Positions 12,027 to 60,247 of a DNA stretch of 60,247 bases are shown here, in pieces. Numbering within the stretch: position 1 is the stretch's first letter; every line of letters begins with the position of its first letter. A program made the translations under genes and the position numbers. This DNA comes from Candidatus Aceula meridiana (GTDB lineage Bacteria > Omnitrophota > Gorgyraeia > Zapsychrales > Aceulaceae): assembly GCA_030765185.1 (NCBI GenBank), contig JAVCDE010000011.1:1-60247 (forward strand). The letters are read 5' to 3'. The notes under the pieces were generated by a model. It was not told the DNA's origin and made no database searches. It was given only the letters and a program-made list of their open reading frames with translations.

Positions 12027-12077
12027 AAGCGTAGGGGACTTTTCATCAAGAACAGGGGTCGTTCCCTGCGCTTTTTT
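12027..12077 (+). terminator. Putative intrinsic terminator inside the pilin array
   Basis: AAGCGTAGGGGA ... TTCCCTGCGCTT stem (two G-U pairs, long loop) running into a T6 tract. Confidence 0.55.
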
Positions 12078-12152
12078 GCGGGCAGCATTAATGAGAGTAA
12101 TCGTAGAACTATCGCGAAAAATGGTAAAAAATTAGGAAAGGCGGCATAGTAA

Positions 12153-12581: not shown

Positions 12582-12604
12582 CGGGAAAAGATACGGGAAA
12601 AAAT

Positions 12605-15607: not shown

Positions 15608-15892
15608 ATGCGAAATAAAGACATCAACAAGAAATATAACATAAAACGAAAAGCCCAAGTTACCTTGGAGTTTGTTTTTTGTTTTTTTATTGTGATGCTT
15701 ATTTTTTATAGCTGTGTTAAAGCGCTACAATGGTTGGGCAAAGCACTTATCGGTCCTCATTATCAACAATCTCGTGCATATGACAGTGATGGCGGCTTGC
15801 GCGAAGTTGTGGATCAAATGGATGCTCCTGTTGATCAGTATACGCCTTTGCGTTTAATGTATCGCAATAAAACTTTTGGTGGTTCTTATTAA
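15608..15892 (+). CDS. TadE/TadF-like pseudopilin
   Basis: KRKA|QVTLEFVFCFFIVMLIFY. Confidence 0.85.
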   Translation: MRNKDINKKYNIKRKAQVTLEFVFCFFIVMLIFYSCVKALQWLGKALIGPHYQQSRAYDSDGGLREVVDQMDAPVDQYTPLRLMYRNKTFGGSY

Positions 15893-15917
15893 AGATTTTA
15901 GAGAAGGGAATCAAAAT

Positions 15918-20053: not shown

Positions 20054-20057
20054 TTAT

Positions 20058-20939
20058 ATGCTAGTTATGATTCTTATCTTAGCTTTTTTTTCAGTTTTTA
20101 CTTTTGTCTTAGGTGTCGCTTCAGCGATTCAACTAGAGGGCCGTCCCACGCTGGACAGAATCATTGGAAGGACTACCCAGAAAAAACAGAGATTTGGGAT
20201 TTTTCGTCACTTAATACGGGCACTAATGTTTTTTAACAAACCTCTTTGCGCTGGCCCCATAGGAGAGCGCATGAGGAAGGATTTAAATTTATCACGCGTA
20301 GGGCTTTTCCCTGAGGAATTTATTTTTGTTAAGGAATCAGCCGTCATTCTTTTATTGTTTATTACCTATCCTTATTCTGATCCGAACAACAGAATGTTTT
20401 GGCTCATTGCAATGATTGCGGCAGGATGGTATTTGCCGGAGTTCTGGATCAAGACAAAAATTAAGAAAATTAAGAACCAGGTTATTAAAGACCTTCCTGA
20501 TGCGATTGATCTTTTGTCTCTTTGTGTTAATGCTGGGCTGGATTTCTTGTTGGCTCTAAAATGGGTTATTGATAAATCTGTGCCTTCGATTCTTATTTTA
20601 GAGTTGAATCATGTCTTGCAAGAAGTCCAGGTTGGTAAGCCTAGAAGAGATGCTTTAGTTGATTTTGCAAATAAGTATCAGATTCCGGACCTTTCCACTT
20701 TTACCCGGGCTTTGGTCCAAGCAGACCGCATGGGAACCTCTGTTTCTGACGCCTTAAATATTATTTCAGAAGATATGCGTGTTTCTCGCTTCCGAAGAGG
20801 CGAGCAAACAGCTCTTAAAGCACCTTTAAAAATGCTCTTCCCTCTTTTGTTTTGTATCTTCCCCGTTGTTGGCATTCTTGTTGCCGGGCCGATTCTTTTA
20901 CAGTTTATGCAAGAAAATCCTCTCAAAGCTCTATCATAG
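20058..20939 (+). CDS. tadC: TadC (T2SSF-family inner-membrane platform protein)
   Basis: DLPDAIDLLSLCVNAGL...GKPRRDAL...QADRMGTSV...KAPLKMLFPLLFCIFP. Confidence 0.9.
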   Translation: MLVMILILAFFSVFTFVLGVASAIQLEGRPTLDRIIGRTTQKKQRFGIFRHLIRALMFFNKPLCAGPIGERMRKDLNLSRVGLFPEEFIFVKESAVILLLFITYPYSDPNNRMFWLIAMIAAGWYLPEFWIKTKIKKIKNQVIKDLPDAIDLLSLCVNAGLDFLLALKWVIDKSVPSILILELNHVLQEVQVGKPRRDALVDFANKYQIPDLSTFTRALVQADRMGTSVSDALNIISEDMRVSRFRRGEQTALKAPLKMLFPLLFCIFPVVGILVAGPILLQFMQENPLKALS

Positions 20940-21424: not shown

Positions 21425-21452
21425 TTGACACTTCAAGAATATATGTTATATT
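21425..21452 (+). promoter_or_regulatory. Sigma70-type promoter of the giant gene
   Basis: TTGACA(21425-21430)-16 nt-TATATT(21447-21452) with extended -10 TG at 21444-21445. Confidence 0.7.
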
Positions 21453-21473
21453 TTAGTTGTCGTTAAGAAGAAA

Positions 21474-21573
21474 AAAGCCACGGAAAAGCCACGGAAGAAG
21501 TAAGAAGTTTGGGACGTTATTTTAATAGGTAAAGGGCTGTGGCTTTGAAGAGGGAAACAAAGACGCAGCCCTT
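21474..21573 (+). promoter_or_regulatory. Structured 5' leader of the giant gene
   Basis: Tandem AAAGCCACGGA x2 (21474-21495); hairpin AAGGGCTGTGGCTTTG/CAAAGACGCAGCCCTT (21532-21573) just before RBS AGGTGG. Confidence 0.55.
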
Positions 21574-21590
21574 AAAAATTTAGGTGGATA

Positions 21591-24500
21591 ATGAGCAGAC
21601 TTAGTTCAACAATAGACATTATCAAAAACTCTTATAATAAGATTCAAAGTCTTATACTAAGAGTTCTTTTTTTTGTTTATCGTAAGTCTACTAAGGCCGA
21701 AGTTCAAGCCAACCCAGAGCTTGCTTTTGTTGAGGCTCAAGAGATTCAAACCGCTAAAGATCAAGAAGCTGCCCGCTTAGCAGAATATGGCCCGGCATTT
21801 CAAAGCCGAGTCAAAGACTGGATGCGTCTTGTTGCACTCACTATTTTAATCGTTTTTATCCCGGAACAAGTCAGCTGGGCGTTTAATTACAATCCATCTG
21901 TTTTGTGGAGTCGCAGAGGCGCTGATGGATATTTGTCCACTCAGGCACAAGGCACTAATTCTGTCGCAGAAAACATCCAGCATCTTTTAAAACAAATCGC
22001 TGAAAAAGAAAATCCTAGAGTCCAGGTTCCTTTGCCTAGCCCTGATGCAGAAACTCAGAGTAGTCAAAAAGCCATTTTAGTTAATTCTACTCTAACCTTC
22101 ACAAACGAATATATCCAGGATATTTTAGCTTGGCTTAGAAATCCTGAAACCCATCCGTTAAATTGTGGTGTTTATGCCTTAAGAGACCTATTAGCCATAC
22201 ATCAAATTGGCCTTGAAGTTGAGCAGGTTTCTGTGCTTACGCTTACGGTCGATATTTTAAGTAAGATTATTAAGCCTTCTGATGAAAAGCTTAAGACTTC
22301 GCTTTACGCTATTGAGAAAATTGCCACAGCCTATGGGCTTGACATGGCATCTTTTAGGGTGGATATCTCTGATCTTTCCAAGATTGAAGGGCCATTTATT
22401 GCGAATTTAAGGCCGGAACACTTTGTTTTTGTGGCAAGCGTAGATGAAGAAAATGTTGTTTTAAAGGATGTGGGTGAGACTGCGGTTGTTCCTTTAGAAG
22501 AATTTGCCAAGGATTTTACTGGGTTTGTTTTGGCGCCTAAGACTGATGCGGTAAGCGAAGCCGAAACAGTTTCAGATGAGAAAAAGGCATTTGTCTGGGG
22601 TTCACGTTGGCGTAACCAATTTGAAGACGGTCTGCCGGGAACAATAACTGGCAAGCAAGTCCTTATTAGTGCTGCTATCGACATTGCTTCAATGATTTTA
22701 TCTTTTGGAATGGCTGGGGGTTTAAAAGCCGGGGCGGATGTCGCGAAAATTATCGCTCAAGCCATACAAGCCTATATTCTTTCAAAATCTATCAGCGAGA
22801 TGACAAACGCTATCGGAAGAGGACAGGCTCTTAAGTGCATGGATAAAGGAGGTAGCGCAGAGGAATGTAAAGATGCTGGGGAAACTGCCCATATCATTGG
22901 CGTTGTTGTTTCGACGGCCTTGACACTTGCTATGGGCACAAGCGGTTTTAAGGAAACAGTTACAGAAGAAGTAGTTACAAAGGCTGGAGAAGAGGTCATA
23001 ACAGGCATTGTTGTAGATGAGCTTGGGGTACATGTTGTAAAAGAGGTGGCAACAGAGGCAATAACTACGACTACGACCGAGTTGGTAAAGATGGGAACGG
23101 CAGAATTTATCGGAGCAGTTGCCAAAAACTTGTTAGTAGGCGCTGGAGTTGGTTATGCTAAGGCTGTTGTTCAGATGAAAATTTATAAATATTTAGATGA
23201 AGAGCTTAAGATGGACGACAGCGTCTTGCGCGATGCTATTATTGCTACGGCTGTTTCTTTAGCCGGATCTTTGACAACTGTTGTTGTCGCAAGTGGGGCA
23301 GAGCTTATGCTTAAAGTAGCCGGATTCGCCAAGGTAGACATTGATGGCGGTTTTGGCCTTCAAGATGACACTGGAAAAACGCTATTCGGTGAATTTTTTG
23401 CAAAAGTAGGAGACACATTAAGCAACGAGTGGAAAACGCAAAGAGGCCAAATCGTTGGTATTGCTCTTGGATCTCTTGGTGAATATCTTGCAGAAAAATA
23501 CGAATGGTTTGGCGGCGGTGATGCCAGCAAAACATTTTTTGTGCAAGCCTTAACGGAGCTCGGAAATGCGACAGGACAGGTTGTTTTTGAGGAAATGCTC
23601 TCGCCTAATAGACAAAGACGTTATTTTAAAGATGAGAATGGGAATTTGGTTAGATGGAAGGATGTCAAAAAAGATAGAAAAGAAGAGCTTCGAGCCAACA
23701 ACTCAAAAGATTGGCGAAAGAAATATCACGATGAGAGGAAAAGCGCGCAGTGGTTGGTCCTTGGTCCAGATGCCTTTACGACAAAAGACATAGACACTCT
23801 TCGCGACGCGTATAAAAAAGAACGTCAAGAGATTTTGGACAACAAGAAGCTTTCAAAAGAACAGCAAGAAATAGACCTTCAGGTCTTGGATAAAAAATAT
23901 GAAATGAAAATAGACAAGCTTTACGTAAAGTATGAAACAGCCCGTCAAAAGATTTTGAACGAAAAGGGGCTTTCAAAAACGCAAAAAGAAGAAAAGCTTA
24001 AGGCTTTGGAAGAAAAGAACGGAGTAAAGCTGGTCTTCATGCTCGACGACTCTGGAGATCCTATGGATTTTCAAAGCCCAGGGCACAAATTGGTTGGCAC
24101 CCTTGCAAGGGGAAGCATAAACGCAGCTCTTGCTTTTAAGTTTGATAAGATTGCGATGAAAAGACGAAAACAAGGCAAAGAAACAGGTTCTGGATTTTAT
24201 GCCTTAGCTACTTTAACGACAGCGGCTGCTGCGGGTCTTTCCGCCGCAGCATGGGAAGCCATTAATATTAAAGGAAGCAGGGCGCTAGCTAAAGAAGAAT
24301 TATCTGAAGAAATTGCTGAAGCGGCAGAAGCACAAGGCATTCAACTCACTAAATCAGCCTTACGAAAAGCAACACGTCAAGCCTGGAAGGGCGAAGATGT
24401 TGAGATTCCCGCTCTTTCTAATGAGATCAAGCAACTTAGAGAAGAATGGGAAGCTGCGATAGTTTCAAAAGATTTTGTCACCGCTCTAGCACTTGCTGAA

Positions 24501-39500: not shown

Positions 39501-42500
39501 TTAAAATTGCACAAACAAGCCAGAGAGTTTCATGAGAACAACGAGCATAAAAAAGCAAAAAAGACGCTTGTTAAAGCAAATAAGATTGAGGAGAAATGGC
39601 TTAAAAGAGTAGCTCAAAAACAAGAAGGAATTTATGATAAATTTGGAAAAGCAGGGGGGGATGAAACTGACGGGGAAGTAATCAGCACTTTAAGCGCAGT
39701 TCCAAAGCTCAGAGATCAATTTGCTAAAACAATTGTAAACAGCGTCCCATCTTCTGTTAAAAAACCTCGCGTTTTGTCTATTGGTTTGGGAACTGGTACT
39801 TTTGAAAAGAAATGGCTAATGGACAAGCACGGATTTGATGTTACAGGTCTGGAGTACAATACTGGTTTGGCAAAAACAGCCAACAACAATGGTGTTAAGA
39901 CAATACAGGGAGACGGAAACCAGCCTCTTCCATTTGCGAATGAGTCTTTTGATGTGGCTATTTTTCCAGAGAGTATTGAACATTTAAGCCCAGAATCGTT
40001 CAAAGAGGTTAATCGTGTTTTAACGCCAAGCGGAAAGATTGTAGCGGCTGAAGTTCTTTCTGAAAATAATACTGAGGGAAGAATTGTTAAGGATATTTTA
40101 ACGAGAAAAGAAGTAACAAACGATTATTTAAAGAAATATGGTTTCAAAAATGTAAAAGCAAAAACGGCATCGGGTAGAGCGCAAGGAGCTTTCGGAAAAA
40201 GAGATATCACGATCATTGAAGCCACAAAGGTCTCTTCGAGTGCAATAGCCTCGGAGCCAACCCGTGCACCGCCGACGAGATGGCAAAGAGTGCAAAGATT
40301 TGTTAACAATAACGTTTCTCCAAAGAGCGGGGCAGGAACCTTCTTAACCGCACTTGCCTTTACTTTCGGCCTTGCTCAAAACACACAAGCACAAGATAAT
40401 ACTCAACAAGTTTTGCCAGCCATGGCACCTGCTGCTACACAAATTTCTGTAGCAGAAAACCAGCTTTCATCAATTAATGAAGGAAATATATATTCTGTAA
40501 CACCTCAAGACCTTGAGCAAGAGCTTCAAGCAGATCCTGTTATGACTGTTCCTCAAACGTTAGCTCCAGTTGTTGCTCCAGCACTTTCGACTATTTCGGT
40601 AATCGGACCACTATCGCAAACGACAACAACTAATGTCTCTATTCCAGCCATCGCAAAAACCTCGTCGGCAAGTTCAAACGCTATTGCTAAGGCAATAGAA
40701 TCCAAAGACGCCGAAAAGTTTGTTCAGGCGCTTAAACAAGATAGCTTAGGAACGGCAAGGAAGGTCGAAGATTTTTATGTTGTCGATGACAAAACTTTAG
40801 GAGCTCTCTCAGGATATGATGCTTTGGATATAACGCCAAACGAAAGCACAGCATTCCATATCGCAGACCAGGTCTTTATCACGAAATCAGCCTATGAACA
40901 AATGAGCCAGGGAAATAATGAAAGTCATTTTTCTGTTGAACGCGAAAAAGCACGCATGGAAAAACATGCACTTTCTGACTATCAAGATTATCAAGATGGT
41001 GACGAATGGGCAACGGCAGAATTATATGCAGGATTTAAAGCTGCTGTGAATGTTTTTGGGATTGAGCAGATACAGACACATAAAGAAAACATTTATAAAG
41101 CGATGGAACGGTCTATTGATTCGTTTTCAGGGGATAAATCTTCTAAGGATTATTACAAATTCCAAATACGAGGCGCTGTTGATATTATAGCCCAGAATTT
41201 AAGTGAAGGCAGCGTAAGCGAACGCGCGAGATATTACGAATATTTAAAGAATACGAAAAGTTTAGAAGAAGCCTTAGGAAGCTATTCTAATTATGAAGGC
41301 CTAAGGAAGTTTTATTCGAAGTCTGGGCATGTCGGCGATATCAGTTTCGCGCAGGCGACTCATCGGACTTATGAAAAGTTTAATGAAGAATATGACAAGG
41401 GCCAAGCAACGGCATCCGTTTACCAGGGCAGGTCTCAACAAGAAATCCTTAACGAACTTTCCAAGCAATCACCGGCGGAGATGGCGGCAAAGGTTTACGA
41501 TATATCTAATCCTTTTGCACGTCTCAAAATTAATTCTAACGATCTTGGCGCAGTTTTACAGAAGAGAGATAAAGGTTTCCAACAAGAGTTCTTAAATGCG
41601 ATGGAGACGATTATTTTAAAAGATGTTTCTGCCGGGCTAGAGGTTTTTGATAATCCTCTCGATGTTTTTCAAAGTGATGTTTCTTTGGGAAGGTTCTATA
41701 TCCAAGATACTCTTGGTCTTGAAGCCTTGAGCACAAAGAATTCTTCATCATTCTTAAATACGCCTGCCGTTGATATTTTCAACAATCTTAAAGGGCAGCT
41801 TGATTTTCAACCGATTGTGAGCCAGCGATTATCTCTAGCTGCGCCGAAGGTCAATCAGCTTTATCAAGATGTACTAAAGAAATCTCCGAATCTTTTGATT
41901 TCTAGCGAATTCTTAAGGAACGAAGATAATCAACAGATGGAAGAGGAAATGACAGCGTATAGCGGCTATCTGTTTAAAACAAATGTGCTTCAAAAGATTT
42001 TAACGTTTGCCTCCGAAGCGAAATCAGATGCACAGTATCAAAATCAAGTTGACCAGTATTTATCACAAGGATCTCAGGCAATAGAACAGTGGAAGCCTGA
42101 AATTGCAGAGCTAGTTCAAAGATTAAAGAATGGAAGAACGGGCCTCAAAGATCTTAATCTTGTTGTGACGGAAAGACTAAGACAGAGAATTTTAACCGCA
42201 GTCTTTAATGCGGCTGGAATAGGAGGCCCGGAAGCGATAGACGAAAAAGAAGAATTTTCATATTATCTCTCGGCTATTAAAAAGGGTATGGTTCGGCCGC
42301 TTGTGTGGGATCAAATATCTGTGGCTAAAGAATCCGGCGAAAAAGTGTTTTTAGGCGAAGAATTATTTAAAAACAGAATTCAGTATGAAAAGGGAAAGGT
42401 GGACTCTAGGCCTAAAGCGGTTGTTGTGGCATCGACAAATGATGCAGGAGGTACTTTCTTCCAATACGATACATTGCAAGAACTTGTCCGGTCAGGGTTT

Positions 42501-45500
42501 AACGTTCTTTATTATGAAGTTAAGGCGACAGATGCAACTGATCGTTTATCAGAAGCGAAAGCTTTCTTAAATACTTTAGGAGAGGCTACTTCTGAATCAC
42601 CGGCAGACATCATTGTCTTATCGCATCACGGTACACCTAAAGGCATTAAAGATTTCTCTTTAAATCAAGGAATTTTGAAAAATGGCGGCAGTGTTCTTTT
42701 AGATGCTTGTTCGACGGGCAGAGAAATAAATCAAAACAGGGGGAGCATGGTTAGCTGGTTAGCTTCGCAGCTTCCTCAGGCTGCTCATGTACTCGGTGCA
42801 ACAAAGGGAGTAACTTCTTTAGGGCTTGAGATTAGTCCATCCGGCATTTCTTTAAATGCAGATGCTCCAATATATGATGGCATAACACACCAAACGGCAA
42901 GCCTCAACGGAGATGGTTTGAGTCGTTTTGATGGAACACGAGCACTTTCTATCCAAGCAGCACCTGCAAGCATACCAGCAGGAAACGCAAGCATGGCTTA
43001 TGTGCCAAACCGTGGTTATGTTCCATCAAACACAACCGCCCAAGACCTTCTTGCTAAAGCTCAAGAAATCAAGAGAAAGAGCGATGAAGCTTTAAGAAAA
43101 TTACAAGATCAGGCTCGAGTTCAGAATCAATCTCAAAAGACTCAGCCAACACCACCGCAGACAAACGTAATGCAAACAGGAAGTGTTATGCCAGCTGCTC
43201 CAACGAGCACAAAAGGGGTGTTCAATTTTGTTAAAAAATTCTTTGGTTTTTCACCTCAAAAAGAACAACCATCTCTGATGGCAAAAGCGCAGCCTTCGCT
43301 TGTCAGCTCAGACATTAAAAACGGTATGCCAGCTGCTCCAGCGAGCATAGGAATCTCAAAAACTGCACAAGGAATTCTTGTCCCTGGCGAAGGACTAGCG
43401 TCTAATTCCGGGTCAATATTGGTTACTGTTACCAAGGACAAGGAAGGAAAAGTTACTTTAAATGGCATTCCTGCGAGTTCTCGAACTAGTACAAAATTAG
43501 AAACACCAACTTTTTATCAAGCTCAGAACATCATGAAGGATCTAGGCATTAAAAATATTGATTATTCGAAGAGTTCTTCTATGAAGAGGCCGATAACGCT
43601 GATTATTAATCATTTAAAAAATAATCCTACTGATAGGCAAAAACTTGTTGATGAGATAGAAAAGTATCCTATTGAGCTGGAAGAGTGGTCACGAGCATCC
43701 AATAAAAACGATAAGCCCGCTATCCATGTTGTTGACGGAAACACTCGATTGGCCTTGTTGTACATGTCTCGAGCCGACAAAGACGATACTGTTAGCATTC
43801 CTTCTGTTGTTAGAAACGCAGGGCAATATACGGCACCAAAGACTTTTGTTGCCTCGTCGGCAAGCACAACCGCTCCTCAGATGCCCACGACACCAGTTGC
43901 TTCTGCTACAGAAAAAATTAAAACCATTTCTATAAGCCGATTACTTAGACCTAATGGTGCAGTTGGCAATCAAGGTGTAACGACAGAACAAGTACGTGGA
44001 ATATTGAACAATGTTTTAGGGCTAAACGTAGGTGAGAATTTTACCATGAGAGAGATGGTTGATGCATTTTTGTCTAAGAAATCTAATGTTCAGAAATTGA
44101 TTGATTATACGAACATGAATCCGATCGAAATTACTATTTTACCTGATAATACTGTTCATATTGACGATGGTCATCATAGAGCGTTCTTGCTCAATCAAGC
44201 AAAAGTAAAGAATATTGCAATAGCTTCACTATCAGAAAACACTCTTCCATCAGAAGTAAGCACCTCTGCTAGTTTAGCCGCAAGCGCTATTGAAACAGCA
44301 TCAAATACGACAGGCGCAATGACTTATGCACCAGCGACCACTACTGCAACTGGTTATACACAAATGGCTTACACGCCACCAGCAGGAAACGCAAGCATGG
44401 CTTATGTGCCAAACGGTGGCTATGTTCCATCAAACACAAGCACATCAAATGGAACAAGCTATGGTGCAGGCGTTAACTATACTTCGCCACAAGCCTATAA
44501 TTGGACAAGCAATCCGGTTTATACGTATTCTACAAACACAACCGCTCAAGATCTTCTTTCTAAAGCTCAAGAAATTAAGAGAAAGAGCGATGAAGCTTTA
44601 AGAAAATTACAAGATCAGGCTCGAGACGTTCAGAATCAATCTCAAGAGACTCAGCAAAAGACATCAACACCACAGCAGACAAACGTAACGCAAGCAGGAA
44701 GTGTTATGCCAGCTGCTCCAACGAGCACAGCTGGGGTATTCAGCTTTGTTAAAGAATTCTTTGGTTTTGCACCTCAAGAAGAACAACCATCTCTGATGGC
44801 GGCTGAGACTATATCATCAAATATAACAGCTGTTGGAAAAACTAAGAGCATTACAAAAGAAACAAATCAAAGATTAGCGAAAACAGGATTAGATTTAGAG
44901 CTTAGATCAGATGGCGCAAACGGTTTAGGATGGGAAGAATGGGCAATTCTAAAAGATGGAAAAGAAATAGGAGACGTTAAGGCAGTTCCTAAGACAAACG
45001 GCAATTTGCTTGTCGAGAGCATCGGCCTGGAAGGACGTTATCAAGGACATGGCATCGGATCGAATATCTATATTGCCCTAAACGAAGCCTTAGGCACAGA
45101 AACACAAGGCATCCTATACACAAAAGGTGGGACATTCTCGAAGACTCAAGACACTAAGAAATTTGCAGAAGAAATTAAGAAAGGAAAGCAATTATGGACA
45201 GGACTTACTCAAAAAGGACTTGCTGAGAGAGCAGGCGTAGATTACTACCGAATGAATTCTTACGCGGCTGGCAATCCTTCGAAAGTTTTTGAAATTAAGA
45301 AAATTTCTTTGGATATCGCAGCGCCGAAGATTGCAATGCCGGCTGCACCGCAAAAGATCACGATGCCAACAGCATTCGCAAAATTTGACCGCGTCGGCAG
45401 CACATTTGTTTCAAGCTCATTGCCACAAGCGATTCAAGACGTTATTAAGAGTCTTGAAGCAGATGGCCGTCAAAAAGAAATTCCTTTAATTGCTGGATAT

Positions 45501-48500
45501 TCTATTATTTCGTCTTCGGCTACCGTGGGTACTCCGCAAGAGCTAACTGATTTCTATTTTAGCAATAATTATCCTGATGTTTATTGGAGCACAGATGGTG
45601 ATGTTTATAGTGTTAATGCAGATCTTACTTTAAACGAGAAAATTGATATCGAAATTATTAAAAATGGTGTTGTCATCGTTCCTTCAGACAGTCCAATTGA
45701 TCCGCTTTCGGATATGAGTCGTTTAGGATGGTTTGATCCTAACGCCTTTAGCATGCCGACAACAGTTGCTGCACCGCAATATGCAGCCACAGTTTTCAGC
45801 GGCGATACGCCTCCAGGAAGCACATTCCTTATGTCTAGCAGCGTTGTTAGTGACATTAATATGCTTAAAAAGGCCTTGCCAGCGGATCAATTAGCGCTTG
45901 TTGTTTCAAGCTCTATTATTTATGTTGCGCCTGAAGATTGGAAAAAGACAGCAGCTTCTCTAGCGCCAACGCATTCTGTTTATGCTTATGATGGTAAAAA
46001 CATTCATCCGGTTAGTGAAAACGGCAGCATTACCACAAGCACAATTAAATTTGCTGATATTTCCGGTCAATTTAGTATTTTTGTTGCAGAAGAAGACTTA
46101 CTAGAGGCATTTAACGCTAAGCACAGATTCATGGTTGTTGAAGGCACATACTTCTTTGATAAGACGCTCTACACTCTTAAAGCAACTGTTTCAACCACAG
46201 AAACAGAGATAGAAGAAGATTTTGCTCCTGTAGATGTTCCTCAATTTGAGGTTCCGGACATGACTCCGCCGGCTGAATTTACTCCGGCTGTGCCAACAGC
46301 TCCGATTGCGCCAACATTTATGATTACACCTCTTCTTGGTAAAAAAGAAGTACAATCAGACCAAAAGATGGCTCAGGCGCCTCCGACTACCTTTGTATAT
46401 AGTCTTGCAAAAGCAGAGCCAAACAGCGCAGGTCAAAATCGGCCTTATACCATACCCATACATACCGAACACGCTGTGATGCCATTAGTGCCAGCATTGC
46501 CTGATGTCCCTGTCTCTGAGAATGATCCTAGTACCGGAGGCAATGGCAGCAATAATCCTGTTCGAAAGGCACCTACGCATCAGATGATTGCCTTTGCAAG
46601 AGCTAATGTAAACAAAACTGACATAGTTCAGCCAGTAGGCCTTGCCGCAAGCGCTGCGAGAGAGAATGGCGCAGGTTGGAAGATCGAGATTGCTAAAGCG
46701 ACATCGACAAAGGGCCTTACTACTGGCTTAGATCCGAATCCGCTTTCAGCTGCCGCTCGTTTCCGCAACGAGTCAGGCGGGAGAATAACAGGAAGCGCGG
46801 AACAAGAAGCCATGGACTCTGTGTCGGTATTTGCTTTGACCGATGTAGACGCAAAAGAAGAAAAAGAAGCAAATGTTGTTAAATTGTTCTCTAAGAACGC
46901 TTTAGACGTAGTTAGTCTAAACAACGGAGACGAAAAAGCCAAAGGTGTGCGTTCTGGAGTAGTTGTTGATCTTCAGAGAAATGCCTTCAGGTTAGCCAGC
47001 CTGGTCCTTGCAAAGGGACGAATGAGCTTGAACCGTTCTTTGAACATAGTGAATGCTGCCCCTAGCACTATTAGGGAAAGCGTGATTGCTAAAGGCGCTG
47101 AAAATGCCCGTATCTTAGGCTCTGCCTATTATACTAGGGTAAATGATGTCCTTAATGTGATCTATGCTGATGTCAAGGACGTTGCTCTTTGGATGAATGG
47201 ATCGTTACAGGAAGTGCTTACTGTAATCGCAGGCCTGTTTGTTAGCCCTGTGTATGCTGCAGAAATAAGCGTTTCCGGTGGTGCGCGAGGTGTGTCCTCA
47301 AGCGATGCTGCTAAAACAGTCGAAGAAGATGTAGAGACTGTAGCTGAGCTTAAGGCCAAACCAGCTCTAAGCGTAGATGCGCCTCTAAGAGGCCGCATGA
47401 TCACCTTCCCTATAGTAGGGGAAGATGCCGGAAAAGCTGCAGATGCAAACTCAGTGTCTAACATGCGAAATAGTCTATCACAAGAAGGATTAAAAAGACT
47501 ATTCACACAGCCAGCTTTTGCAGAAATTGGCGTTTCCGGTGGTGCACAAGGTGTGTCTTACGAAGACCGAGCCCCAATCACTGCCCCAGCAGGAAGTATC
47601 TCTGCCAGAGCAGCTAGTTCTATAGGCTCTATAATAAAGAAGGCACTCAGTGCAGTTTACAGCGCCATCGTTCAAAGAAACAACAGAGGTTTCGAGCTTC
47701 AGGGCAAAGAAGTCAGCATCGCGAGAAACTTGATCGCCGGAATCCTTATTCCGACGCTCTTCATACTTCAGGTTCTCCAAATACTGCCCAACGGGAATGC
47801 TGTGTCTCCCGAAACCTTAAACTTAGTACAAAATATTCAGATTTCAGGGACTGACCTTAGCGTATTCAATCATCCTATCGTTAGAATTATAATTCTTTCT
47901 TGGGGCTTTGGGTTCTATTTCTTAGCAAGAAACATGCCGTTTGTGTCATTGCACTTATTTGTAAAATCAGTTCTTTGGATGGACTTTGGTGGTGCTGGAA
48001 CATTCTGGGGCAATTATGGCTATAATGCAACTATCGACATGCTTTTCTATATGACCTATGTTATGGCCGGGGCAGAAGTCCTTAGGCTAGGCTGGAGACT
48101 TCTTAATGGTAAATTCTTAGAGCATTCTAGCTTTAAAGCAATGCAAGATAACTTTGGCACTATTCCTGCTCAAATCCTTTCTGCTCTTGCAGAGGTCACT
48201 TATAGGGCTCAACCAAAATTTACGACTCGTCAAGTTATCGCAGGCGTTGTTACAACCTTTGTCATTCTAACCCTAACGGAGATTTTCCCAGTTGAAGCTT
48301 ACTATATTTACGAAACTTATATTGTTAAAGGACAGCAGACACGATATAGCGGACTTACTCCTGATCGCTGGGATGTTGTTGCATATGCCTTTGGCGGTCT
48401 TTGGCTTACTCCGGTTGCCTTAAAGCTTAGAAACTTAGCTGAGAAGACCAGCAAAGCGATTAGTAAAGCTATTAAAGAGGAATGGGAAGAAGATACGAAA

Positions 48501-51500
48501 GATTTTGATGATGAAGATGAAGGGAACAAATGGGAGCAAGGCTCTAGCGCTGTTGAAACCAAAAAGGCTTCCAAGGTTTCTAGCCCTGATAGAAAAATGG
48601 ATTCCAATATTCCAGCGTTACCTTCGCTACCTTTAAATTCAGCGAATTCTCCAATTATTTATAGCGTAAGCCCACTTCTCTTAATGCCTGTTATGTTAGG
48701 TGCTGGCGTAAGCGCATCTGCTATCGCAGAGGGTGCACTTGTTGCCGCAGGTTTCTTTGGAATTATTTGGTTGCTTAGAAAATGGTTTGCTAAGACAATT
48801 TCTGCACCAAATCGGATCAGTGGAAAACTAAAAGATTTCATGCTGAAGGCGTTGTCAACTGCATCCCTTAACCGTGGCGGTGGGATTGAAGATTTCATGA
48901 CAACGCCTTCTTCTATTATTAACACCATTAAGCTGCTGGCCGGGATTCTTGTACCTTTCCGTGGCAGGAATACAAGTAGAAACGTTCTGCCAGCAGCTTC
49001 TTCTTCAGCTAGCCCTGTATCTAAGAAGACTGAAAAAGCAAGAAGCGTAGTCAAAGCCGTAGTTATCTTTGCAATTATAGCGCTATCAATTGTTGGAGTA
49101 AGCATCAACTTCGGGGCTATAGCCACGTTTATCTCGCTGGTTCCGTTTAAGACATTATTAGTAGCATTGTCTAAAGAGGCGACGATGTTGTTCTTAAGCG
49201 GCACGCTTATCGTGGCTGCTTTAACAGCGAAATTTATCGCAAAGATTTTGAACATAAAAAATAGTAAATTAAAATCAGCGCTATCTTCTTTCTGGGTGCC
49301 GGCATTGCAGTTTACCGTTCTTATCGGATCCACTTATTTATGGGTAATTGCTCAGTCTCAATTTGCTGCATCAATAGCTATTGCCGCTACTTTGTTACCG
49401 TTTATTAAGTTAGCAATGTTTTCAGCGTTGTTCTTTATCGTGGTTTGGGCATTAAATGGAATGGTGGACAACATTGGCAGGATCATAAATGGCGAAGAAG
49501 TTAAGTTGATGAACGGAATTAAATCTCGACTTGGGAGCATGCCTAAACTTAGCAGAGCGGTCTGGCTATCTATAAGAGACTTGAGAAAAGCAAAGAGAGC
49601 AGAGCTAAAGACATCTATGAAGGCACATTTTGTTAAACTCTTTAACGATGTTAAGAAAGGCAACTGGAAAGCAATAGTTAAGGTAGTTGGTGTCACAGCC
49701 TTAGTGTTGACTGTTATTGTTGCTGATCCGGCCTTAAAGATATCGGCCTTTGCCTGGTTTGTTGGGGCTTTATTAGCTGTCTTTGGAAGCTATCTTGTTA
49801 ATGTGTTCTGGAATTTCTTTATGGATAGAATTGACGCTAATGTTAAGACTTTGGATCAGATCGTTGAATACGCCAAAAGAGCTAACGGAGAAGAATATGA
49901 TTCTGAAGCATTGCCTGACGCAACAATCGGAATAATCGAGAAGAGAGCCAAAGAATACGAGGAAAGGATTAAAAGAGCCAGCAAGGTAGGAAACGCCATA
50001 TATAGATTTAACGCATGGATGGAGAGAAGAGTTCAGAATAATCCTACCTTCGCCGGATATCTCGGATTGTATTTCTCTAGGATTTTAATCGCTGCTATTG
50101 GTGTGTGGGTCGCTGGACCTGTGGGAGTAGGTTTAGGATTTGGCGTAGAAGATTCTGTGCTGGAGCCAGTATTAGAGACCATTGGTTTTTCAGCAGAGTT
50201 TATCAAAGGCACCATAGCTAACTTGGTAAAATTAGGATTACAGCATACACAAGGACAACTCGTCAGAGTCTTGCTTATCGTTTTAGGTTATATGGTCGTT
50301 GGTTTAGCTAATAGATTTAGAGCAGCCCAGCAAGGAAAATTTGGCATTGGCACCAAGTCAACACATGTTCTTAGGGCTTTAGTAGAAAACAAAGAGAACT
50401 TGAAGATAGTGGATCAGATAAAGAGTCTATATCAATTAGGCTTGGTAAATGATGTTCTTGGAATGGGTACAAAAAGATTAATAGAAGAAGAATTAGGCAT
50501 GAACAAAGAAGATATGCATTCTATAGGAAAGCGTATTAAAGCTCAAGTTGTTTACAACGTTGTTCCGATGTTGATAGCTCTTGGAGGCATAGCATTATTT
50601 GTTTTACCTCTATTAACTAAAATGTTATGGGCAATCAATCCGATTTTAGGGGCAGCAGTTTTGGCCTTGCCGATAGTAGCTGGTTTGGTTAGTTTAATGT
50701 TTAAGGCAAGGCAAGATTTTGCAGCTAAACATCCTTATTCAAACGTTATCGCGCAACAAGCAGCACAATCTTGGAAGAGCTTCGGCGGAATGTATATTAT
50801 CGGTACAGAGATTAGCGCAATCACTCACGGCGCAGAGTATTTAACTCATATTCCCGGAGTAGGATTTGTATTTGAACCAGTAGACAATATGGCGCAGGCA
50901 TTTGAAGGCGAAGGCGGGTTAATCAGCATTGGTGACCAGCTAATCGGAGCCTTCGAAGGAGCATATGGATTTGTTAACGGAGAGACAATAGAGGAAGTTC
51001 AAGGATTAAGCAGTCAGTGGGTATATTCTAAAGTTCTAGGAGCGGAAGGGGATCTTAAAGATATCCAGATGGCAGAACAACATAGAATCTCTGTAGAACA
51101 AGCTGCAAAAATGAGAGAGCTACAAAATTTTAAGGCCAAGAAAGCTGTTCAGGAAGGTTACAATTCTGAGAATGGCTGGTGGAAGAACATCATCAAATTC
51201 GGTAATGTTGTTCAGGCTAAGGGAGTTGACTTACCTGTTGGTGACATAGACGAGCAGATTAATCTCTTGCAGAAAGAATTGGATATATTAGAAGCAGAGC
51301 ATAAACTTGAAGAATCATTAAAAGAAAAAGAGAGAGTAGAAACACTTTCAGAATTAAGCGAAACAGAAAAGACCAACATGCTTTCTGTTTTAGGCTATGG
51401 CCTGCCGGAAGATGAAAATGCTGAAAGAAGCATGAAAGCCTTCAAGGCAGCACGAAAAGACACTGCTGATTCTGAAACAGACGAAGACAAGGCCTTAGTC

Positions 51501-54500
51501 GATGCGTATCTATCTTTAGTTAACAATGATATCGAGAGAACTAACAATAGTAGAGAAATGACGCAGATAGCCTTAAATCAGCTAGCAGACAGCAAAGAAT
51601 ATGTAACCTTAATCACAACCGCTCCGGTTCAGCTAGAGAAGGAGCAGGAGGTTGTGAATAGATTAAACGGGTACACAGAAAGATTAGAGCAGCTAGCCGC
51701 TGAAGACAATGCTTTAAGAAATAAGAGTGATTTAGAAATTCTTCGCAACCAAGACTTAAGATATAAGTTAGAACTTAGCGAAGGAATTGCGAACGAAAGT
51801 AGGAGAGACATCGTCGAGAAACAAAAAGAAGTTGTTGCCAAGCAGGTTGAGGTGTTAGAGGAAAAAGAAAAGTCAGAAGATGACCAGAATCGAGAAAAAA
51901 TTGCATTGCTTTACAAAGAAATAAGAGACCTAAACGGAGAACTCGCGGACCTAAAAAGTGAGTATTTTAAAGAAAAATTAAATGAATCTGAAGTCGTCAG
52001 AGAAGATTTAATTGATATTTTAAATAGCATAGGAGTCCTTAGACAACCTCAAGATGTCAACGCGGAAGCTAGCGATAGCGACATCGAACAGGCTCTTAAC
52101 ATTTTAGAAAGATCGTTAAATATTCCTGCAAACGATAATAACGGTATCGAAATAGGAGACAAAACAAAACAAGCAATAGTGAACATCTTTGATGTGAAAC
52201 TAAGAATATCCAAAGAAAAGGATATCCAGAAGAGAACCGCAGACAAGATTAACTTAAAAAATACTTATTATGAAATCAACAGAGTAATCGCTCAGGACAA
52301 CCATGACGCAAAGAGAGACTTTACCTTGCAGAAGATTTGGGATGCAATAAAAGACAAACGCTATTTGCCTTCAGAAAAATTACTTCAGCAAATAGAAGAG
52401 GCTGAATACTTTGTTGATTATTTAACTTATTCTTTAGGCGTGCTTAATACTGTCGCCATAGCTGATGGTTATGAATACACAGATGATGTGCGCGTAGCTT
52501 TAGATAAACTAAATATTTATTTTGATAGCAATGAGAATGCCGATAAAGCTAAGGGATACTTGGAAGCCCTTGAATCCAAGACAGCTTCACTTAAAGAGAC
52601 AGAAGCTAATTTGAGGGAACTATTAAATGAAGCAAAGGAGTCTTTAGAGAAATCAATGGCTCAAGCTTGGGGCGAAGAAGAACTTGTAGAGATTGACGAG
52701 CAAGATGCAAATGATGAGGTAAGAAGTGCGTTGGCTGAAGAAGTCAATGGCATGAAAGAAGCTTTCGGTGAGAATATAGCCAAAATAAGAGACATAAGAA
52801 GTAGCCGCTATGAGAATATTTCTAATCAGAACGATGAATTGGCAGAGCTAGATAAACTTTTTGGAAGCCAAGAAGCCTATGAGCAGAGAATGGCAGACAT
52901 CTACGCTAAATTAACAATGATAGATTTATATGTTGATCTTCAGCTAGGAGACACAGGTAGCAATGTCGAGAAATTATACAGACTGTTAACCCAGGAGTTT
53001 GATGCCACTGAAAAAATAAAAGGCATCGCCGGTATAGATATCACAGGAATTTTTACCAATCAGATGAGTGAAGTTATCGAAGGCTTACAGCAAGAGCTAG
53101 GAGTAGAAGTTAGTGGAAAATGGAATGATGAGACCGCCGCCGCTGCAGAAGACTTTATCAGCGAAAAGGTATTGGCTACTTATCATATCGGCCTGCTTAA
53201 GAATGCTGGCTATTATAACGAGGCAGATAATTATGAATCCAATCAAGATGTATTTGCCGATTTAGAAAATATTTCTAAAATAATTGACGGATTCCAAGCC
53301 GATGCCAAGTTCCCGGTAGATAAAATAACCGGTGAGTGGAATTTAGAAACAACTGAATATTTCTCTAGGCTCGAGCAAGGTTATATGCAAGCTAAATGGT
53401 TGAACCAGCGCTCTTCTGATTTAATCGCAGAATATAGAACAGAGCTAAATAGCTTGAAGCCGGAATTCCCAATTGAAGGAAAAGACGCTAAAGATGATGT
53501 GGCATCCAGGTTCGGATTTGTTAAAGGTCGCTTTGACAGCAAGTCACATGTTAATACCGGCATTACAATCGATACCCAAGACGGCACCACAATACACGCC
53601 ATAGCAGATGGCGAGGTCGTTTTTGTAGACAACAAAAAAGGTATTATCAAAATAGACCACGGCAACAATATAGAGAGCATTTATAGAAACTTAGGCAAAG
53701 TCGAGGGCGACCTTAAAGTAGGCGACATGGTTATCAAGAGAAACAAGCTAGGCGAGAGTAAAGATTCATACATGCATCTTAAGGTGCTTATCAATGGCGC
53801 TGCGGTTAATCCTTTAAATGGAGTACTGTACGAGAACTTGGCCGATGAAGACAGAGCCGCACACGAATCAATCAAGCAAATCAGACAAGATCGAGAAGAC
53901 ACCAGACGCAGACAAGATTTAATAGATTTTATGAATTCCCGTACAGAAAATGCTGATGTTGTAACACTTGAAAAAGCATTGGAGAGTATAAACAGCAAAG
54001 AATTTGAGGCAGAATATCGCAGGAGCAATGAAGATGTTGACAACGCCTTGATTACTTTTGAAAGAATGTTGCAGGAGTTAGATCAACAGGGCTTTAAAAA
54101 ATTCGTTAAAATGCTTAAAGATCATCAATTTAATATCGGCGGCTCTATACAGCTTAATGAAGGTTCTCTAGAAAAAATGGGTTGGTTAGGGTTTGCATCT
54201 AGATTAGACGATATTTTTGTAAAACCATTCCGAAAAGACAGCAAATATGAAAGCATCTCGCTAGAGGCTACACTCAGCTATTTCAACGCCTTGATTGCTT
54301 TAGAAGATGCCAGATTAGATGCGGAGAGAGAAATTAAAGAAGCTTATATAGGCCTGTTATCAGCTGAGATGAGATTAAGAATGTTTGAGGGTGGAGAATT
54401 GACACAGGATTTAGTAGATGTTTGGAAGAAAGACGGATACGCGTTTGATGCTCATCAGAAACGATACCTGAATATACCTGTTGAGAAATTAGCCAACTGG

Positions 54501-57500
54501 GAAGAAGCAAGAGCTGATTGGGAAGAATCGAAAAAGGCTTTCCAGGACATAACCAACATAGAAGTCAATCCGTTTATGCTGGAGACGGTCAGCCTAGTTG
54601 ACCTAAAACAGGAAATTCTAGATACAAAAATTAATAGAAAGAATATCGATGGGCACACAGAAGGCGTAACTGCTTTAGAAAATAATTTAGCTAAGAATTT
54701 CATAGGCAGACTATTGAGCAACGTCAATGTACAGTTTGGATTCAGTCTCGCAGAAGGCAGAAGTGGATTATTTAGTCTAGGGGTAGACCTCAAGGTTCTA
54801 GACAGTGAAAGAAAGCTTAGCGAACAAAAAGATCAAGTAACCTTTAGCGTCATAGGAGAGAGAAAAGAAGACCTGATAGAAAAGACATTAGCCAATGATG
54901 CTCACTACAGCAACTTAGTCGACCAAGCAATGAACTTTAACGAAGACATTGCTCTCGTTAGAGAATATCAAGCGCCGGTTGAGGCATTCATAGAAAAGCT
55001 AGATCCTATCTTGCCAATCAAAGAAGCTTCCATTCTCGAGGCCAAAGAACTTAAAGATTCTATAAAACTTCAGAAGGCTAATTTGCCAAGCCTGCTTTTA
55101 AGCAATCTCACACCTGATCGTCAAGCTATCACAAAAATGCGCGCCGGATTAAATCTAGGTATTAAAAAATCTGCAATAGCGCAAGCAGAGCTAGAAGACG
55201 GATCAGGAGAAATTGTTAAAAACAGGACGGAAATTGATGAGGAAAAAGTTAAGGAATTTAGAGATACATGGCAACAATGGTTCAAGGACATAGACAAGGT
55301 CAATAACAAAAACAAGAAGACACCTACAGAGAAGGCCAATGAAATAAATGATATTTTAGCTGAAGCTAAATTATTTGAGGATTATTTCAAGCTTGAGAAA
55401 ACACAAAACAGAACTCTAGACAGTGAATTCAAAATAAAGCTAGAAGCATTAGAAACATATACTATCCTATCTGACAAGGAAAGAGATGGCTGGTTTAAGC
55501 GCTATATGGCTTCTCTATTAAAGGGAGAGCACGTGAACGCTCCTCCGCAGACAGCCGCAGAAGCTGCAACACTTCCTTTAACCCTCGAGCAAGCCACAGA
55601 TTACTTCAAGACATTCCAAGGATACCAAGACACAGAAGAATTAATAAAAATCGTTCACGACAGATTGCCATACACCGCAGACGTAACCCTACAAACAATC
55701 ATTGACGAAGCTATTAGAGAAGAAAAAGACGCATTCGATTTAAATAATATATTTACTGAGATAAGCAATATGGAGCTTAGGTTAGCCCAAAAGAGAGGCG
55801 TAAGCATCAAAACAGGATACTTTATTGCCATGGCTACCTTAAGGGTTCAGATTCAGTCGCTCTCTAAAGGCGAGATAGCAGGCACAGAATACAAATTAGC
55901 TTATGAAGGCCTTATGAATATTATCGATGCTCAGCTCATCGCTTTCAAGGCTACAGACGCTTACGAAAATTACCTCCACACCTTGTTAGAGTACCAAAAC
56001 TGGACAGGAAAAGGCGGCGATGAGTTTAAAGCAGCGCAGCTTAAGAGAGACCTAGAGATAAGCAAATTGTATCTACCGGCATCAATGCAAGATAGCCAAG
56101 AATTAAAAGATTTAGAGGCGCAGGATATTACATATAAGAAGCTTACTGACCTCATCGAGCAGGATAATAAATTAATCGACTTCAGCGTATTAGGTGATGA
56201 GTTAAATCAAAGAATCATATTTGCCAATATTTGGAAACTTAGAGAAAATAAGAGTGACTGGGTAATACAGGGTGCATCCGAGGTTTATACGGCAGCCGTA
56301 ATGTTTGCTTTACCGTTTGTGACTAAGTTTATCAATTGGGTAGCCGGTCCGGATAAAAAAGAGATTGCTAACCAGATAACAATTCTTTCCGGAGAATTAA
56401 ACAGGATAGAAACAAATAATGCAAAAGGAATTCAGTCAGAGCAACAACTCCTCGAGTCTTATGAAAGTCAAACGATGAGCATAGATTACTTTGAGAGAGA
56501 AATGATCGAGGCAGAAGATAATAGTAGAAAAGAATCTGAGGTAGAGTCGAGCCTAAATCAGGCTGCCTATAACTTAGCGACTTTAGAAGCTAAAGCAGCT
56601 TATGGAGATTTTGAGCTTCCTGTCACTCAGACCATGGATGAGGATGAGTTCCAATATATCGATGATCAGACAACCTCTATTGACTCTGAAATTATAAATG
56701 GGGCTTCTATATTAAGCGCGGTAAGGTTTACATATGGGGATGGAGCTACAGGGGAACAAGTAACCGTCTTAACGGATGAGGGCAGCCTTGTTGAGGTCAG
56801 AACGATGCATACTTCTGACGGAATTACCATGCGCTATATTAATTCTGAGAATTTAAGAGATAGGTCAGATAGGATGCAGATAGACGGCAGCGTTAGACCA
56901 GGCCTTGATAGATCTATCGATGCTATCCAGGCGGTAGATAAGATGGAAATACCTTTAGAGCTCTTTGGTCAAGATGAGATAGATGTAGATTACGCCTTGA
57001 AGATGACAAAGGTCGAAAATGAAGCTCAGTATTTTGGCAATATCGGCGTAGCCTACCGTTTGACTTTCAAGAACGGGGACAGATTAGAGTTGCCGGTCTT
57101 CGTGCTTGTCGACCAGGATGAAAAGATTAGTTATTTTGTCGACTTCGACTATTACAGCAAAGATTTCAGCTTAAACACAGGCCTCTATATTCATCCAGAA
57201 GTAAACGATGCTGGCGAAGATATTTATAAGGTAACTGGCCTCGTTGGCGGCCGCAAGATATTTAGGGATCAGGCAGGCGCATATAATGGAGATGTCAGAG
57301 TCTTCTACCAAGATACCAAAGCAGGAGTATATTCTAAGTTTATGTTTGGAGCAGATAATGGCTGGCGTATGAATATAGCTATGGATACGGACTGGAAAGA
57401 GAATCAACATTACAGCAGTCAAGTAGGCGTTGAGAGAAGGGTGAATAATAAATATTTTGTAGGAGTAGGGCTAGATATTGCTTACAGAGAAGAAGGATTC

Positions 57501-60247: not shown

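Follow-up and report, generated by a model that had tools for sequence, protein, structure and literature searches.

A stop-free frame of 12,885 codons in Candidatus Aceula meridiana is probably the 5' half of a giant gene of a kind known from Omnitrophota

What occupies the last 38.6 kb of contig JAVCDE010000011.1 of Candidatus Aceula meridiana (Omnitrophota; assembly GCA_030765185.1), where the track of open reading frames (ORFs) lists only small entries? We analysed this contig over its whole length of 60,247 nt, which is called the window below. An earlier note, made from the letters alone, had proposed that 64% of the window is one reading frame of more than 12,880 amino acids. Our analysis indicates that this frame is in all likelihood the 5' half of a single giant Omnitrophota gene, which is the best overall explanation of the span. 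That the gene is real and belongs to the kind described from this phylum as 'Archaeovorin' or as a multi-enzyme, membrane-threaded protein appears very likely indeed.

Translation of positions 21591-60245 of the forward strand (frame +3) gave a single frame of 12,885 codons (38,655 nt) that starts with ATG, contains no stop and is open at its 3' end, in full agreement with the proposed length. It runs off the contig end, and the absence of a stop in the window explains, as the earlier note had supposed, why the ORF track missed it. Over an equal span, the other five frames contain 519-1,253 stops each. About 877 stops are expected from base composition in 12,885 codons, and the logarithm of the probability of finding none, ln P, is about -908. 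The GC content of the codon positions follows the order GC1>GC2>GC3 in 12 of 12 three-kb bins of the frame, similar to that of five upstream genes. The ORFs that the track lists in this span had been called shadows, and this view holds: only four of at least 120 aa (138, 133, 224 and 120 aa) overlap the giant frame in other frames, and none of the four reached the Pfam cut-off. Reassignment of stop codons was dropped as an explanation because a frame that lacks TAA, TAG and TGA under table 11 is open under any code.

The nearest preceding in-frame stop lies 5 codons upstream of the ATG (12,890 versus 12,885 codons), and the ATG at 21591 is supported by relatives of the same genus, which align from residue 7-11 onward. 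A Shine-Dalgarno-like AGGTGGA (21582-21588, forward strand) ends 2 nt before the ATG. A sigma-70-like promoter candidate, TTGACA-16-TATATT at 21425-21452 (forward strand), agrees with the consensus at 11 of 12 positions, has a TG before its second hexamer and lies 139 nt upstream of the ATG; it is a consensus match only. Since the scan found four promoter-like sites against 2.3 +/- 1.5 in shuffled sequences, this candidate alone is weak evidence. The leader itself (21458-21600) folds better than its shuffles (z = -2.5; 5 of 200 shuffles equally good) and can form a hairpin with 16-nt arms at 21532-21573, with the Shine-Dalgarno region paired in the outer stem. It also carries AAAAGCCACGG x2, a tandem 11-nt unit, at 21473-21494. 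Rfam gave no match within the window.

The window is an entire contig (C20) of the assembly (G000), which holds 1,913,144 bases in 33 contigs and is 94.6% complete. Extension of the frame to a stop, as the earlier note had advised, could be done in silico. Contig C12 carries a 5'-open frame of 13,934 codons (C12:2-41803, 41,802 nt) that ends at TAA. The frames on C20, which runs off the 3' end, and on C12, which comes in from the 5' end, are the only open frames above 5,000 aa in the assembly, and none of its contigs is stop-free along its whole length. For the window's final 1.2 kb, the genome contains a single other match, at C12:5-127 with 91% identity. Within it, an 80-nt word at 60121-60200 (forward strand) is identical to C12:48-127 in the same reading frame and marks the place where the assembly breaks. 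This word lies 47 nt from each contig end, and from 47 + 80 = 127 we infer that the break looks like an ambiguity of a k-mer graph. Self-comparison revealed acidic, aromatic-rich repeat units of about 83 aa at 59826-60245 (forward strand), the last of which is cut by the contig end. Because the flanks of the 80-nt word differ, its two occurrences would belong to two successive copies of this unit, and, judged from the preceding unit, at least about 23 residues, possibly more units, would be missing between C20 and C12. The giant gene thus very probably continues on C12, giving 12,885 + 13,934 = at least 26,819 residues, or 4.2% of the assembly. If directly joined, the open lengths of 38,655 and 41,802 nt give 80.5 kb, which is a lower bound.

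Independent support for the join comes from relatives with both kinds of module in one ORF. In G001, a genome of the same genus, an open frame of 14,881 codons, itself cut by a contig end, is homologous to both halves in order. It matches window residues 10-717, 1198-1406, 1911-2862, 5139-5999, 8055-8584 and 8995-9126 collinearly at 22-38% identity, and downstream of these six blocks it matches residues 3294-3635 of the C12 part. The giant ORFs of G008 (22,826 codons, closed by a stop) and G026 (24,217 codons) likewise have a window-type N-terminus plus the C12-part module of residues ~3290-3640. In the five closest genomes no match was obtained with either the terminal 1,000 aa of the window ORF or the initial 1,000 aa of the C12 ORF, a result that is uninformative on the join. 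The sequence affinities fit the phylum. For the neighbouring 720-aa ATPase, 7,794 matches were obtained, and every named one among the best 120 belongs to Candidatus Omnitrophota or Omnitrophica (60-75% identity); the ATPase of Ca. Aceula lacicola is 74% identical. Among homologues of the giant N-terminus, the name 'cysteine peptidase family C39 domain-containing protein, partial' occurs, assigned to Candidatus Omnitrophota.

Sequencing runs were also compared with the window. Seventeen DNA-type runs that contain the sequence are labelled 'salt lake metagenome', and no RNA run was among those listed. Short contigs of four of four public runs agree with the last 20 kb, mostly with 0 other letters and without indels. 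At a depth of about 1-5 these contigs cover 30, 29, 30 and 30 of 30 bins, one bin of run X2 being without cover. The agreement is not independent support, as the runs may be the source samples, and among the run contigs aligned to the last 20 kb none was shown bridging the contig end to C12. An apparent joint (47541>47828) in runs X2-X4 is matched on its short side by just 21 letters and occurs in contigs of depth 10-18; loose ends at 45163-45492 and 47455-47848 resemble it. We rejected the joint and the loose ends as a variant of the giant gene; they probably stem from a more abundant organism or a short shared stretch. In the region of the transmembrane cluster described below, window 47455-47848, contigs reach depth 10-18 in three runs against about 3 elsewhere, with short matches after which they become unlike the window.

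The best conserved part of the protein lies at its N-terminus. A hydropathy scan (Kyte-Doolittle, 19 residues, threshold at least 1.6, a crude method) identified a hydrophobic anchor at residues 80-98 (21828-21884, forward strand), within a conserved block F70...Y100 with invariant alignment columns. It is followed by a C39 cysteine-peptidase domain at residues ~170-320 (22098-22550, forward strand). Pfam PF03412 matched residues 235-317 with E 1.7e-10 and 41.3 bits (47.6 bits in a second search; cut-off 22). We aligned 26 N-terminal modules, i.e., the first 400 aa of the giant protein and 25 of 150 listed representatives, taken from the top 40 after 15 long or N-terminally cut ones had been left out. 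In this alignment N191-C192 and E276-H277 show no variation, and D293 is kept in at least 90% of the modules. The spacings are 85 residues for Cys-His and 16 for His-Asp; in ComA they are 79 and 16, respectively. With the Cys-His-Asp set intact and the His-Asp distance equal to that of C39 peptidases, the peptidase looks active. The Pfam match over cut-off and the order Cys...His...Asp are shared with the C39 domains of bacteriocin-exporting ATP-binding cassette (ABC) transporters of the PCAT/ComA type. In contrast to these, the domain is not fused to an ABC transporter but placed after a single anchor helix that heads a giant protein, and neither a double-glycine leader nor a match of the family profile to a solved C39 structure was found. 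The leader-like motif was sought in the giant ORF with a crude test, and Gly-Gly dipeptides are not enriched (67 versus 76+/-8 in the window part, 55 versus 47+/-7 in the C12 part). A profile match in PDB to a designed repeat (E 0.0038) was discarded as spurious. Three further, moderately hydrophobic segments at residues 357-375, 435-453 and 549-567 (22659-23291, forward strand; hydropathy scan and alignment) have Cys416 and Cys426 among them. The C39 domain is the only C39 match in the assembly.

The distribution of this module is wide. It occurs (residues ~65-400) in 35 of 40 relatives of the same order, and the open frames around it measure 85,816, 82,151, 53,549, 44,145, 39,654 and 25,804 codons, many others being cut by contig ends. 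Among 1.84 billion representative proteins it has 346 matches at E<=1e-3 and 67 at E<=1e-30; a search of genome contigs with the first 700 aa gave 180 pattern matches, of which 0 were confirmed. The remainder of the protein behaves differently. The orthologue in G001 aligns over 3,301 of the 12,885 window-part residues, about a quarter, at 22-38% identity, whereas on the same contigs identity reaches 75% for the ATPase and 62-69% for TadB/TadC. As so little can be aligned compared with neighbours at 62-75%, the giant protein outside its N-terminal module appears to evolve fast. Residues 5139-5999 were found in 2 of the 40 relatives, too few for a deep profile. Judged by these alignments, the conserved part of the giant protein would be only the anchor and the C39 peptidase.

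A second feature is the near exclusion of cysteine. The window part contains five Cys in 12,885 residues (0.04%); for 758 other ORFs of the assembly with lengths of 300-5,000 aa the figure is 1.17%, and no other residue departs more than ~1.7-fold from those ORFs. The codons TGT and TGC occur 5 times in frame and 217 and 759 times in the other two frames. One of the five cysteines is Cys192 of the C39 domain. The low level persists into the C12 half, at 0-2 Cys per 1,000 residues for ~6,000 residues; over the last ~8,000 aa it climbs to 5-13. A low Cys content (0.06-0.24%) is likewise seen in the giant frames of G001, G035, G008 and G026. Exported proteins are known to exclude cysteine in bacteria that lack oxidative folding, and the pattern hints that the first ~18,000 residues are mostly extracytoplasmic.

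Recognisable domains are sparse in the window part. The earlier note had seen them throughout the frame, which could not be upheld: Pfam, NCBIfam and PDB sequences recognise four stretches with ~450 of 12,885 residues (~3-4%), and ~96% of the window part has no sequence match. NCBIfam added nothing beyond the Pfam matches, and when three pieces were compared with PDB sequences by phmmer, nothing but the methyltransferase and the M23 domain was matched. The former, a class I S-adenosylmethionine (SAM)-dependent methyltransferase with the Gly-rich LSIGLGTG, lies at residues 6062-6151 (39774-40043, forward strand) and was recognised by Pfam, NCBIfam and PDB (Methyltransf_11, E 1.1e-11, 45.7 bits versus a cut-off of 21.2; PDB 1ve3, E 1.4e-7). 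A cluster of 13 candidate transmembrane segments follows at residues 8542-9703 (47214-50699, forward strand; hydropathy scan). It recurs in 9 of the 40 relatives, always inside large open frames of 1,188-85,816 aa, and window residues 9002-9099 are 41% identical to residues 10028-10128 of the C12 part. Repetition is otherwise rare, as self-BLAST of the giant chain gave three matches, two of which are the contig-end repeat, and Tandem Repeats Finder detected only two trivial rows in the window DNA.

The remaining two recognised stretches concern the cell wall. A PG_binding_1-like stretch at residues 10481-10518 (53031-53144, forward strand) stays below the Pfam cut-off (19.5-20.4 bits versus 23). 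It is followed by an M23/LytM domain at residues 10638-10763 (53502-53879, forward strand; Pfam PF01551, E 2.3e-11) in which the metal-binding and catalytic residues are replaced. The M23 motifs are HxxxD, HxH and an intervening His. Alignment with the active structures 3slu and 6muk showed that H and D of HxxxD have become N and T, the next His has become N, and HxH reads Y-M-H, so that only the last His is kept. A pattern search of residues 10,601-10,800 found no HxH, and the sole HxxxD there, HAIAD at residue 10,669, lies off the zinc motif of 3slu/6muk. The non-catalytic proteins SpoIIQ (3tuf, 3uz0) and EnvC (4bh5) are among the PDB matches of the module, and NCBIfam gave weak matches to MepM and Pgp3. 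Because the zinc and catalytic positions are replaced and SpoIIQ and EnvC are matched, the LytM domain is considered degenerate, and we read it as a putative binding or activating module, not a hydrolase. Non-catalytic LytM factors (EnvC, NlpD, SpoIIQ) share the M23 fold signature and the replaced zinc ligands; unlike them, the module sits at residue ~10,700 of a giant chain, and a partner of the amidase or FtsEX-like type was not identified. The module is most closely related to small proteins of 225-344 aa, and among the giant frames of the 40 relatives one weak match was found, in G014. This suggests that the module may be a lineage-specific capture. About 600 charged, Gly/Pro-poor residues precede it; a crude heptad scan gave no support for a coiled coil there.

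The C12 half carries further divergent domains, some of them of types that usually stand alone. Pfam identified ROK, CofD, two NUDIX, GNAT and C-terminal TPRs, with weak matches to LMWPc, LigT and RelA_SpoT and a match to a GH2/GH5-like TIM barrel below the cut-off. Over both halves there are ~12 distinct kinds of domain, each in at most two copies except TPR, and about 39 candidate hydrophobic segments (17 in the window part and 22 in the C12 part). A tandem pair of CrcB (fluoride channel) domains at C12:36806-37576 (Pfam, E 9e-34) comprises the assembly's only CrcB matches, while all seven other genomes of the family have a stand-alone crcB of 129-154 aa. G029 has a CrcB pair inside a 7,894-codon frame plus a stand-alone copy. 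The neighbours of crcB in G001 map to C32:316275-316886 and C12:118682-118948 of our assembly, where crcB is lacking. Sigma-70 regions 2 and 4 (Pfam) lie at C12 ~39.2-39.7 kb and are followed by hydrophobic segments and the C-terminal TPRs; a homologous sigma-like stretch occurs inside a 26,689-codon frame of G005 (contig C23, E 1.5e-24). The assembly's only RelA_SpoT match, below cut-off, is also in the giant ORF. The ROK and CofD copies in the giant ORF are very divergent, and strong stand-alone copies exist elsewhere in the genome. A 2,116-aa ORF on the reverse strand of C7 (167022-168866) has divergent ROK and CofD matches arranged as they are in the giant ORF (C12:13712-14569 and 16880-17332) and may be a paralogous module. 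The genes 3' of the C12 stop encode a 1,381-aa protein without a Pfam match, a U32 peptidase and PMT_2-like, Mg-chelatase-like and DUF212 proteins.

Upstream of the giant gene, a co-oriented cluster related to Tad and type II secretion systems (T2SS) extends over 407-20939 (forward strand throughout). Pfam recognised in it a Rotamase_2 peptidyl-prolyl isomerase (407-1333), RcpC/CpaB (1344-2192), a secretin fused to TonB_C (2205-3881), a ParA-like domain fused to a T2SSE ATPase (3959-6121), DUF192 (6149-6496), a TadG-like protein (15876-19151) and two T2SSF proteins, TadB/TadC (19196-20939). Small pilin-like ORFs at 9163-13262 gave weak Flp and class-III-signal matches. All 20 cluster proteins (20/20) are collinear in G001 (contig C7) at 27-75% identity, and there too the giant ORF follows. 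The ATPase fusion, with its ParA/MinD-like, CpaE-like N-terminal domain, is full-length in Omnitrophota matches. This fusion of a ParA/MinD-like domain with a T2SSE/CpaF-type ATPase and that of the secretin with a C-terminal TonB_C domain both appear unusual among Tad systems. Three of the small ORFs (9588-9986, 10002-10487 and 10803-11168) match one gene of G001, and two others (11243-11572 and 11675-11983) match another, which points to a probable local duplication of pilin-like genes in the cluster. An A24 prepilin peptidase is found only at C32:189025-189378, outside the cluster.

How does this gene compare with giant proteins already described? ORFs of more than 20 kb were reported in 77 of 116 Velamenicoccia genomes and in other classes, with few annotated domains and poor conservation, and a 39,678-aa protein of V. 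archaeovorus with 42 transmembrane segments was enriched in attached cells (Seymour 2023, PMC10066038). The present frame exceeds 20 kb with its 38,655 nt in the window alone. West-Roberts 2023 (10.1101/2023.11.21.568195) describes proteins of up to 85,804 aa with an N-terminal C39 or S8 peptidase, many transmembrane regions and, in most, SecA-like domains. The 'Archaeovorin' set in that account comprises glycosyltransferase, methyltransferase, glycoside hydrolase, peptidase and NUDIX domains with HEAT and TPR repeats. Upstream lies a T2SS/type IV pilus-like locus with a Rotamase_2 isomerase, rcpC, homologues of gspD/E/F and small class-III-signal genes, and downstream, in the majority, small PilZ and solute-binding or transport genes. 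Cleavage by C39 or S8 was raised there as a possibility, and cell-wall degradation was hypothesised for the class. Tubes of antiparallel beta-helix and CBM/dockerin-like units are also reported in that account. Nielsen & Lui 2026 (10.64898/2026.06.07.730766) report 916 long proteins of up to 147,155 aa, including a multi-enzyme class and a 24-member cluster with a PF03412 (C39) architecture; of these proteins, 94% are targeted to membranes, and T2SS/pilus genes flank 13 of the 14 largest.

With the Archaeovorin type protein (39,678 aa, Velamenicoccus archaeovorus LiM), as these sources present it, our gene shares the phylum, a huge single ORF, an N-terminal C39 domain near a transmembrane segment, numerous transmembrane regions and the upstream Rotamase_2-rcpC-gspD/E/F locus. 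Its domains, scattered in mostly unannotated and poorly conserved sequence, include a methyltransferase, peptidases (C39, M23-like), two NUDIX domains and TPR, plus the GH2/GH5-like match below cut-off. It differs in that no SecA_DEAD, glycosyltransferase, HEAT or GGDEF was detected, in the lack of a downstream PilZ gene and in being shorter (at least 26.8 kaa), whereas the degenerate LytM, the tandem CrcB and the sigma-70-like domain are absent from the main text of West-Roberts 2023. Class 1 multi-enzyme proteins and the 24-member PF03412 cluster (Nielsen & Lui 2026) are also close. They too contain many Pfam families once or twice with none dominating, as we found with ~12 kinds of domain and almost no internal repeats. 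Methyltransferase, GNAT, ROK and NUDIX, the Tad/T2SS flanks, the absence of nucleotide tandem repeats, membrane anchoring and a transmembrane density of the same order are common to both. Unlike Class 1, our gene has no sugar-metabolism core (starch synthase, GT1, phosphoglucomutase), and its runs are labelled 'salt lake metagenome', not groundwater or Baltic water. Giant ORFs of this build and with this neighbourhood are already documented across Omnitrophota. The additions made by this gene are small: the near-total cysteine exclusion, the lack of a SecA-like domain, the CrcB pair and the sigma-70-like domain. The main texts of the two main giant-protein papers do not mention sigma, CrcB, M23, LytM, polyprotein, cysteine or disulfide, and their supplementary domain tables may list such domains. 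A literature search found nothing relevant on Omnitrophota with M23, CrcB or a sigma factor in giant proteins.

Several points weigh against a single giant protein of the Archaeovorin kind. Translation as one chain is an assumption, and the join of C20 and C12 is bridged by no read or contig. The lower bound of 80.5 kb falls short of the >90,000 bp used by West-Roberts 2023 in the published account. No SecA_DEAD match (PF07517, E<=0.1) was found on C20 or C12, the assembly having at this threshold a canonical SecA on C7 and one weak match on C1. Likewise, Pfam gave no glycosyltransferase or HEAT match in the C20 or C12 parts, and no PilZ gene was found downstream of the C12 stop. The Pfam C39 match spans only model positions 44-129 and leaves the Cys outside the aligned stretch; it is conservation and spacing that point to the putative role of C192. 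In PDB, the profile of the N-terminal module matched no solved C39 structure. Counting of hydrophobic segments places residues 570-8541, including the SAM methyltransferase, in the cytoplasm, which conflicts with the cysteine signal. Finally, the published role in cell-wall degradation has little direct support in this gene, because the M23 domain looks inactive and the glycosidase-like match on C12 stays below the cut-off.

Could the long frame be an artefact, or could two genes have been joined in error? A chimeric contig or collapsed repeats might create a false frame in a metagenome-type assembly of 33 contigs that breaks inside a repeat, but a chimera cannot yield 38.6 kb without a stop. 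Moreover, internal repeats are almost absent (three protein matches and two trivial tandem DNA rows), contigs of four runs agree without indels and the ORF is collinear with that of a relative, which makes an artefact extremely improbable. We also regard it as very unlikely that the window ORF and the C12 ORF are different genes, i.e., two giant genes or a window gene that ends soon after the contig end. Such a separation is compatible with the unbridged ends, the differing flanks of the 80-nt word and the junction regions without homologues in the five closest genomes. Yet the genome has a single N-terminal C39 module and a single C-terminal open frame of this kind, the repeat common to both contigs lies exactly at their ends and keeps the reading frame, single ORFs of relatives hold both kinds of module in the same order, and no contig could lie between the two, as none is open throughout. 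There is also little likelihood that the M23 module is an active peptidoglycan endopeptidase and the window part a lytic weapon against prey walls. The replacement of four zinc and catalytic positions by N, T, N and Y relative to 3slu/6muk, with the last His alone kept, the non-catalytic SpoIIQ and EnvC among the matches, and the absence of the module from the giant ORFs of 40 relatives save for the weak match in G014, with small 225-344-aa proteins as its kin, outweigh the Pfam match over cut-off beside a peptidoglycan-binding-like stretch, the weak MepM and Pgp3 matches and the class hypothesis in the published account.

A more unusual alternative is that the ORF is a polyprotein, an operon in one ORF, in which captured genes, some of them housekeeping, are translated once and cut by the N-terminal C39 peptidase, or read from internal starts, to give individual functional proteins instead of one scaffold. 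The catalytic set of C39 is the family's most conserved feature while the cargo varies even within the genus, and the C12 half holds normally stand-alone domains such as the tandem CrcB, the genome's only one, and sigma-70 regions 2 and 4, of which the sigma-like domain recurs inside the 26,689-codon frame of G005. Cleavage was also raised as a possibility in the text of West-Roberts 2023. However, Gly-Gly is not enriched and the crude test found no double-glycine leader-like motif, the divergent CofD and ROK beside strong stand-alone copies look more like co-opted folds than housekeeping genes, and in a genome that is 94.6% complete a stand-alone crcB could be unassembled. Taken together, a polyprotein is unlikely. 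Similarly doubtful is the broader idea that the giant ORF is an accreting gene sink that absorbs stand-alone genes and their jobs, with an active C39 that would release or mature the pieces. Its basis is that the giant ORF contains an ECF-sigma-like domain as well as the only CrcB domains and the sole RelA/SpoT-like match of the assembly. If true, the giant Omnitrophota proteins would be partly polyproteins with essential functions and not only predation scaffolds, and the cysteine gradient, with almost none for ~18,000 residues and then near half the normal level, would mark the boundary between an exported coat and cytoplasmic cargo.

For a single membrane-threaded protein, a mechanism of attachment and envelope processing can be proposed, tentatively and at somewhat less than even odds. 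The polypeptide would cross the cytoplasmic membrane many times. Its first two thirds, with almost no cysteine, would be largely extracytoplasmic and form a scaffold or coat on the cell surface, which may work with the adjacent pilus and secretion machine (Tad-like pilus/secretin) in holding a host or prey cell. The LytM-like module might bind peptidoglycan or recruit or activate another hydrolase without cutting itself, and the C39 domain might trim the giant protein or process another substrate. The C-terminal third, which is closer to normal in cysteine, would carry enzyme and regulator domains of the cytoplasmic type.

The unannotated 38.6-kb frame thereby very probably becomes one half of a ~27,000-residue protein whose gene accounts for 4.2% of the 1.9-Mb genome. 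For genome scanning this means that ORF tracks that drop open-ended frames miss the largest genes, and that such genes usually break assemblies at internal repeats. The giant proteins of this phylum are believed to help these tiny bacteria attach to other microbial cells, exploit them and feed on them. In the gene described here, the degenerate LytM, the single cell-wall enzyme domain of the window half, weakens a wall-degrading reading. The ~30-fold exclusion of cysteine over the first ~18,000 residues and the normally stand-alone modules embedded in the second half, the CrcB pair and the sigma-like domain, are testable details for the biology of giant proteins.

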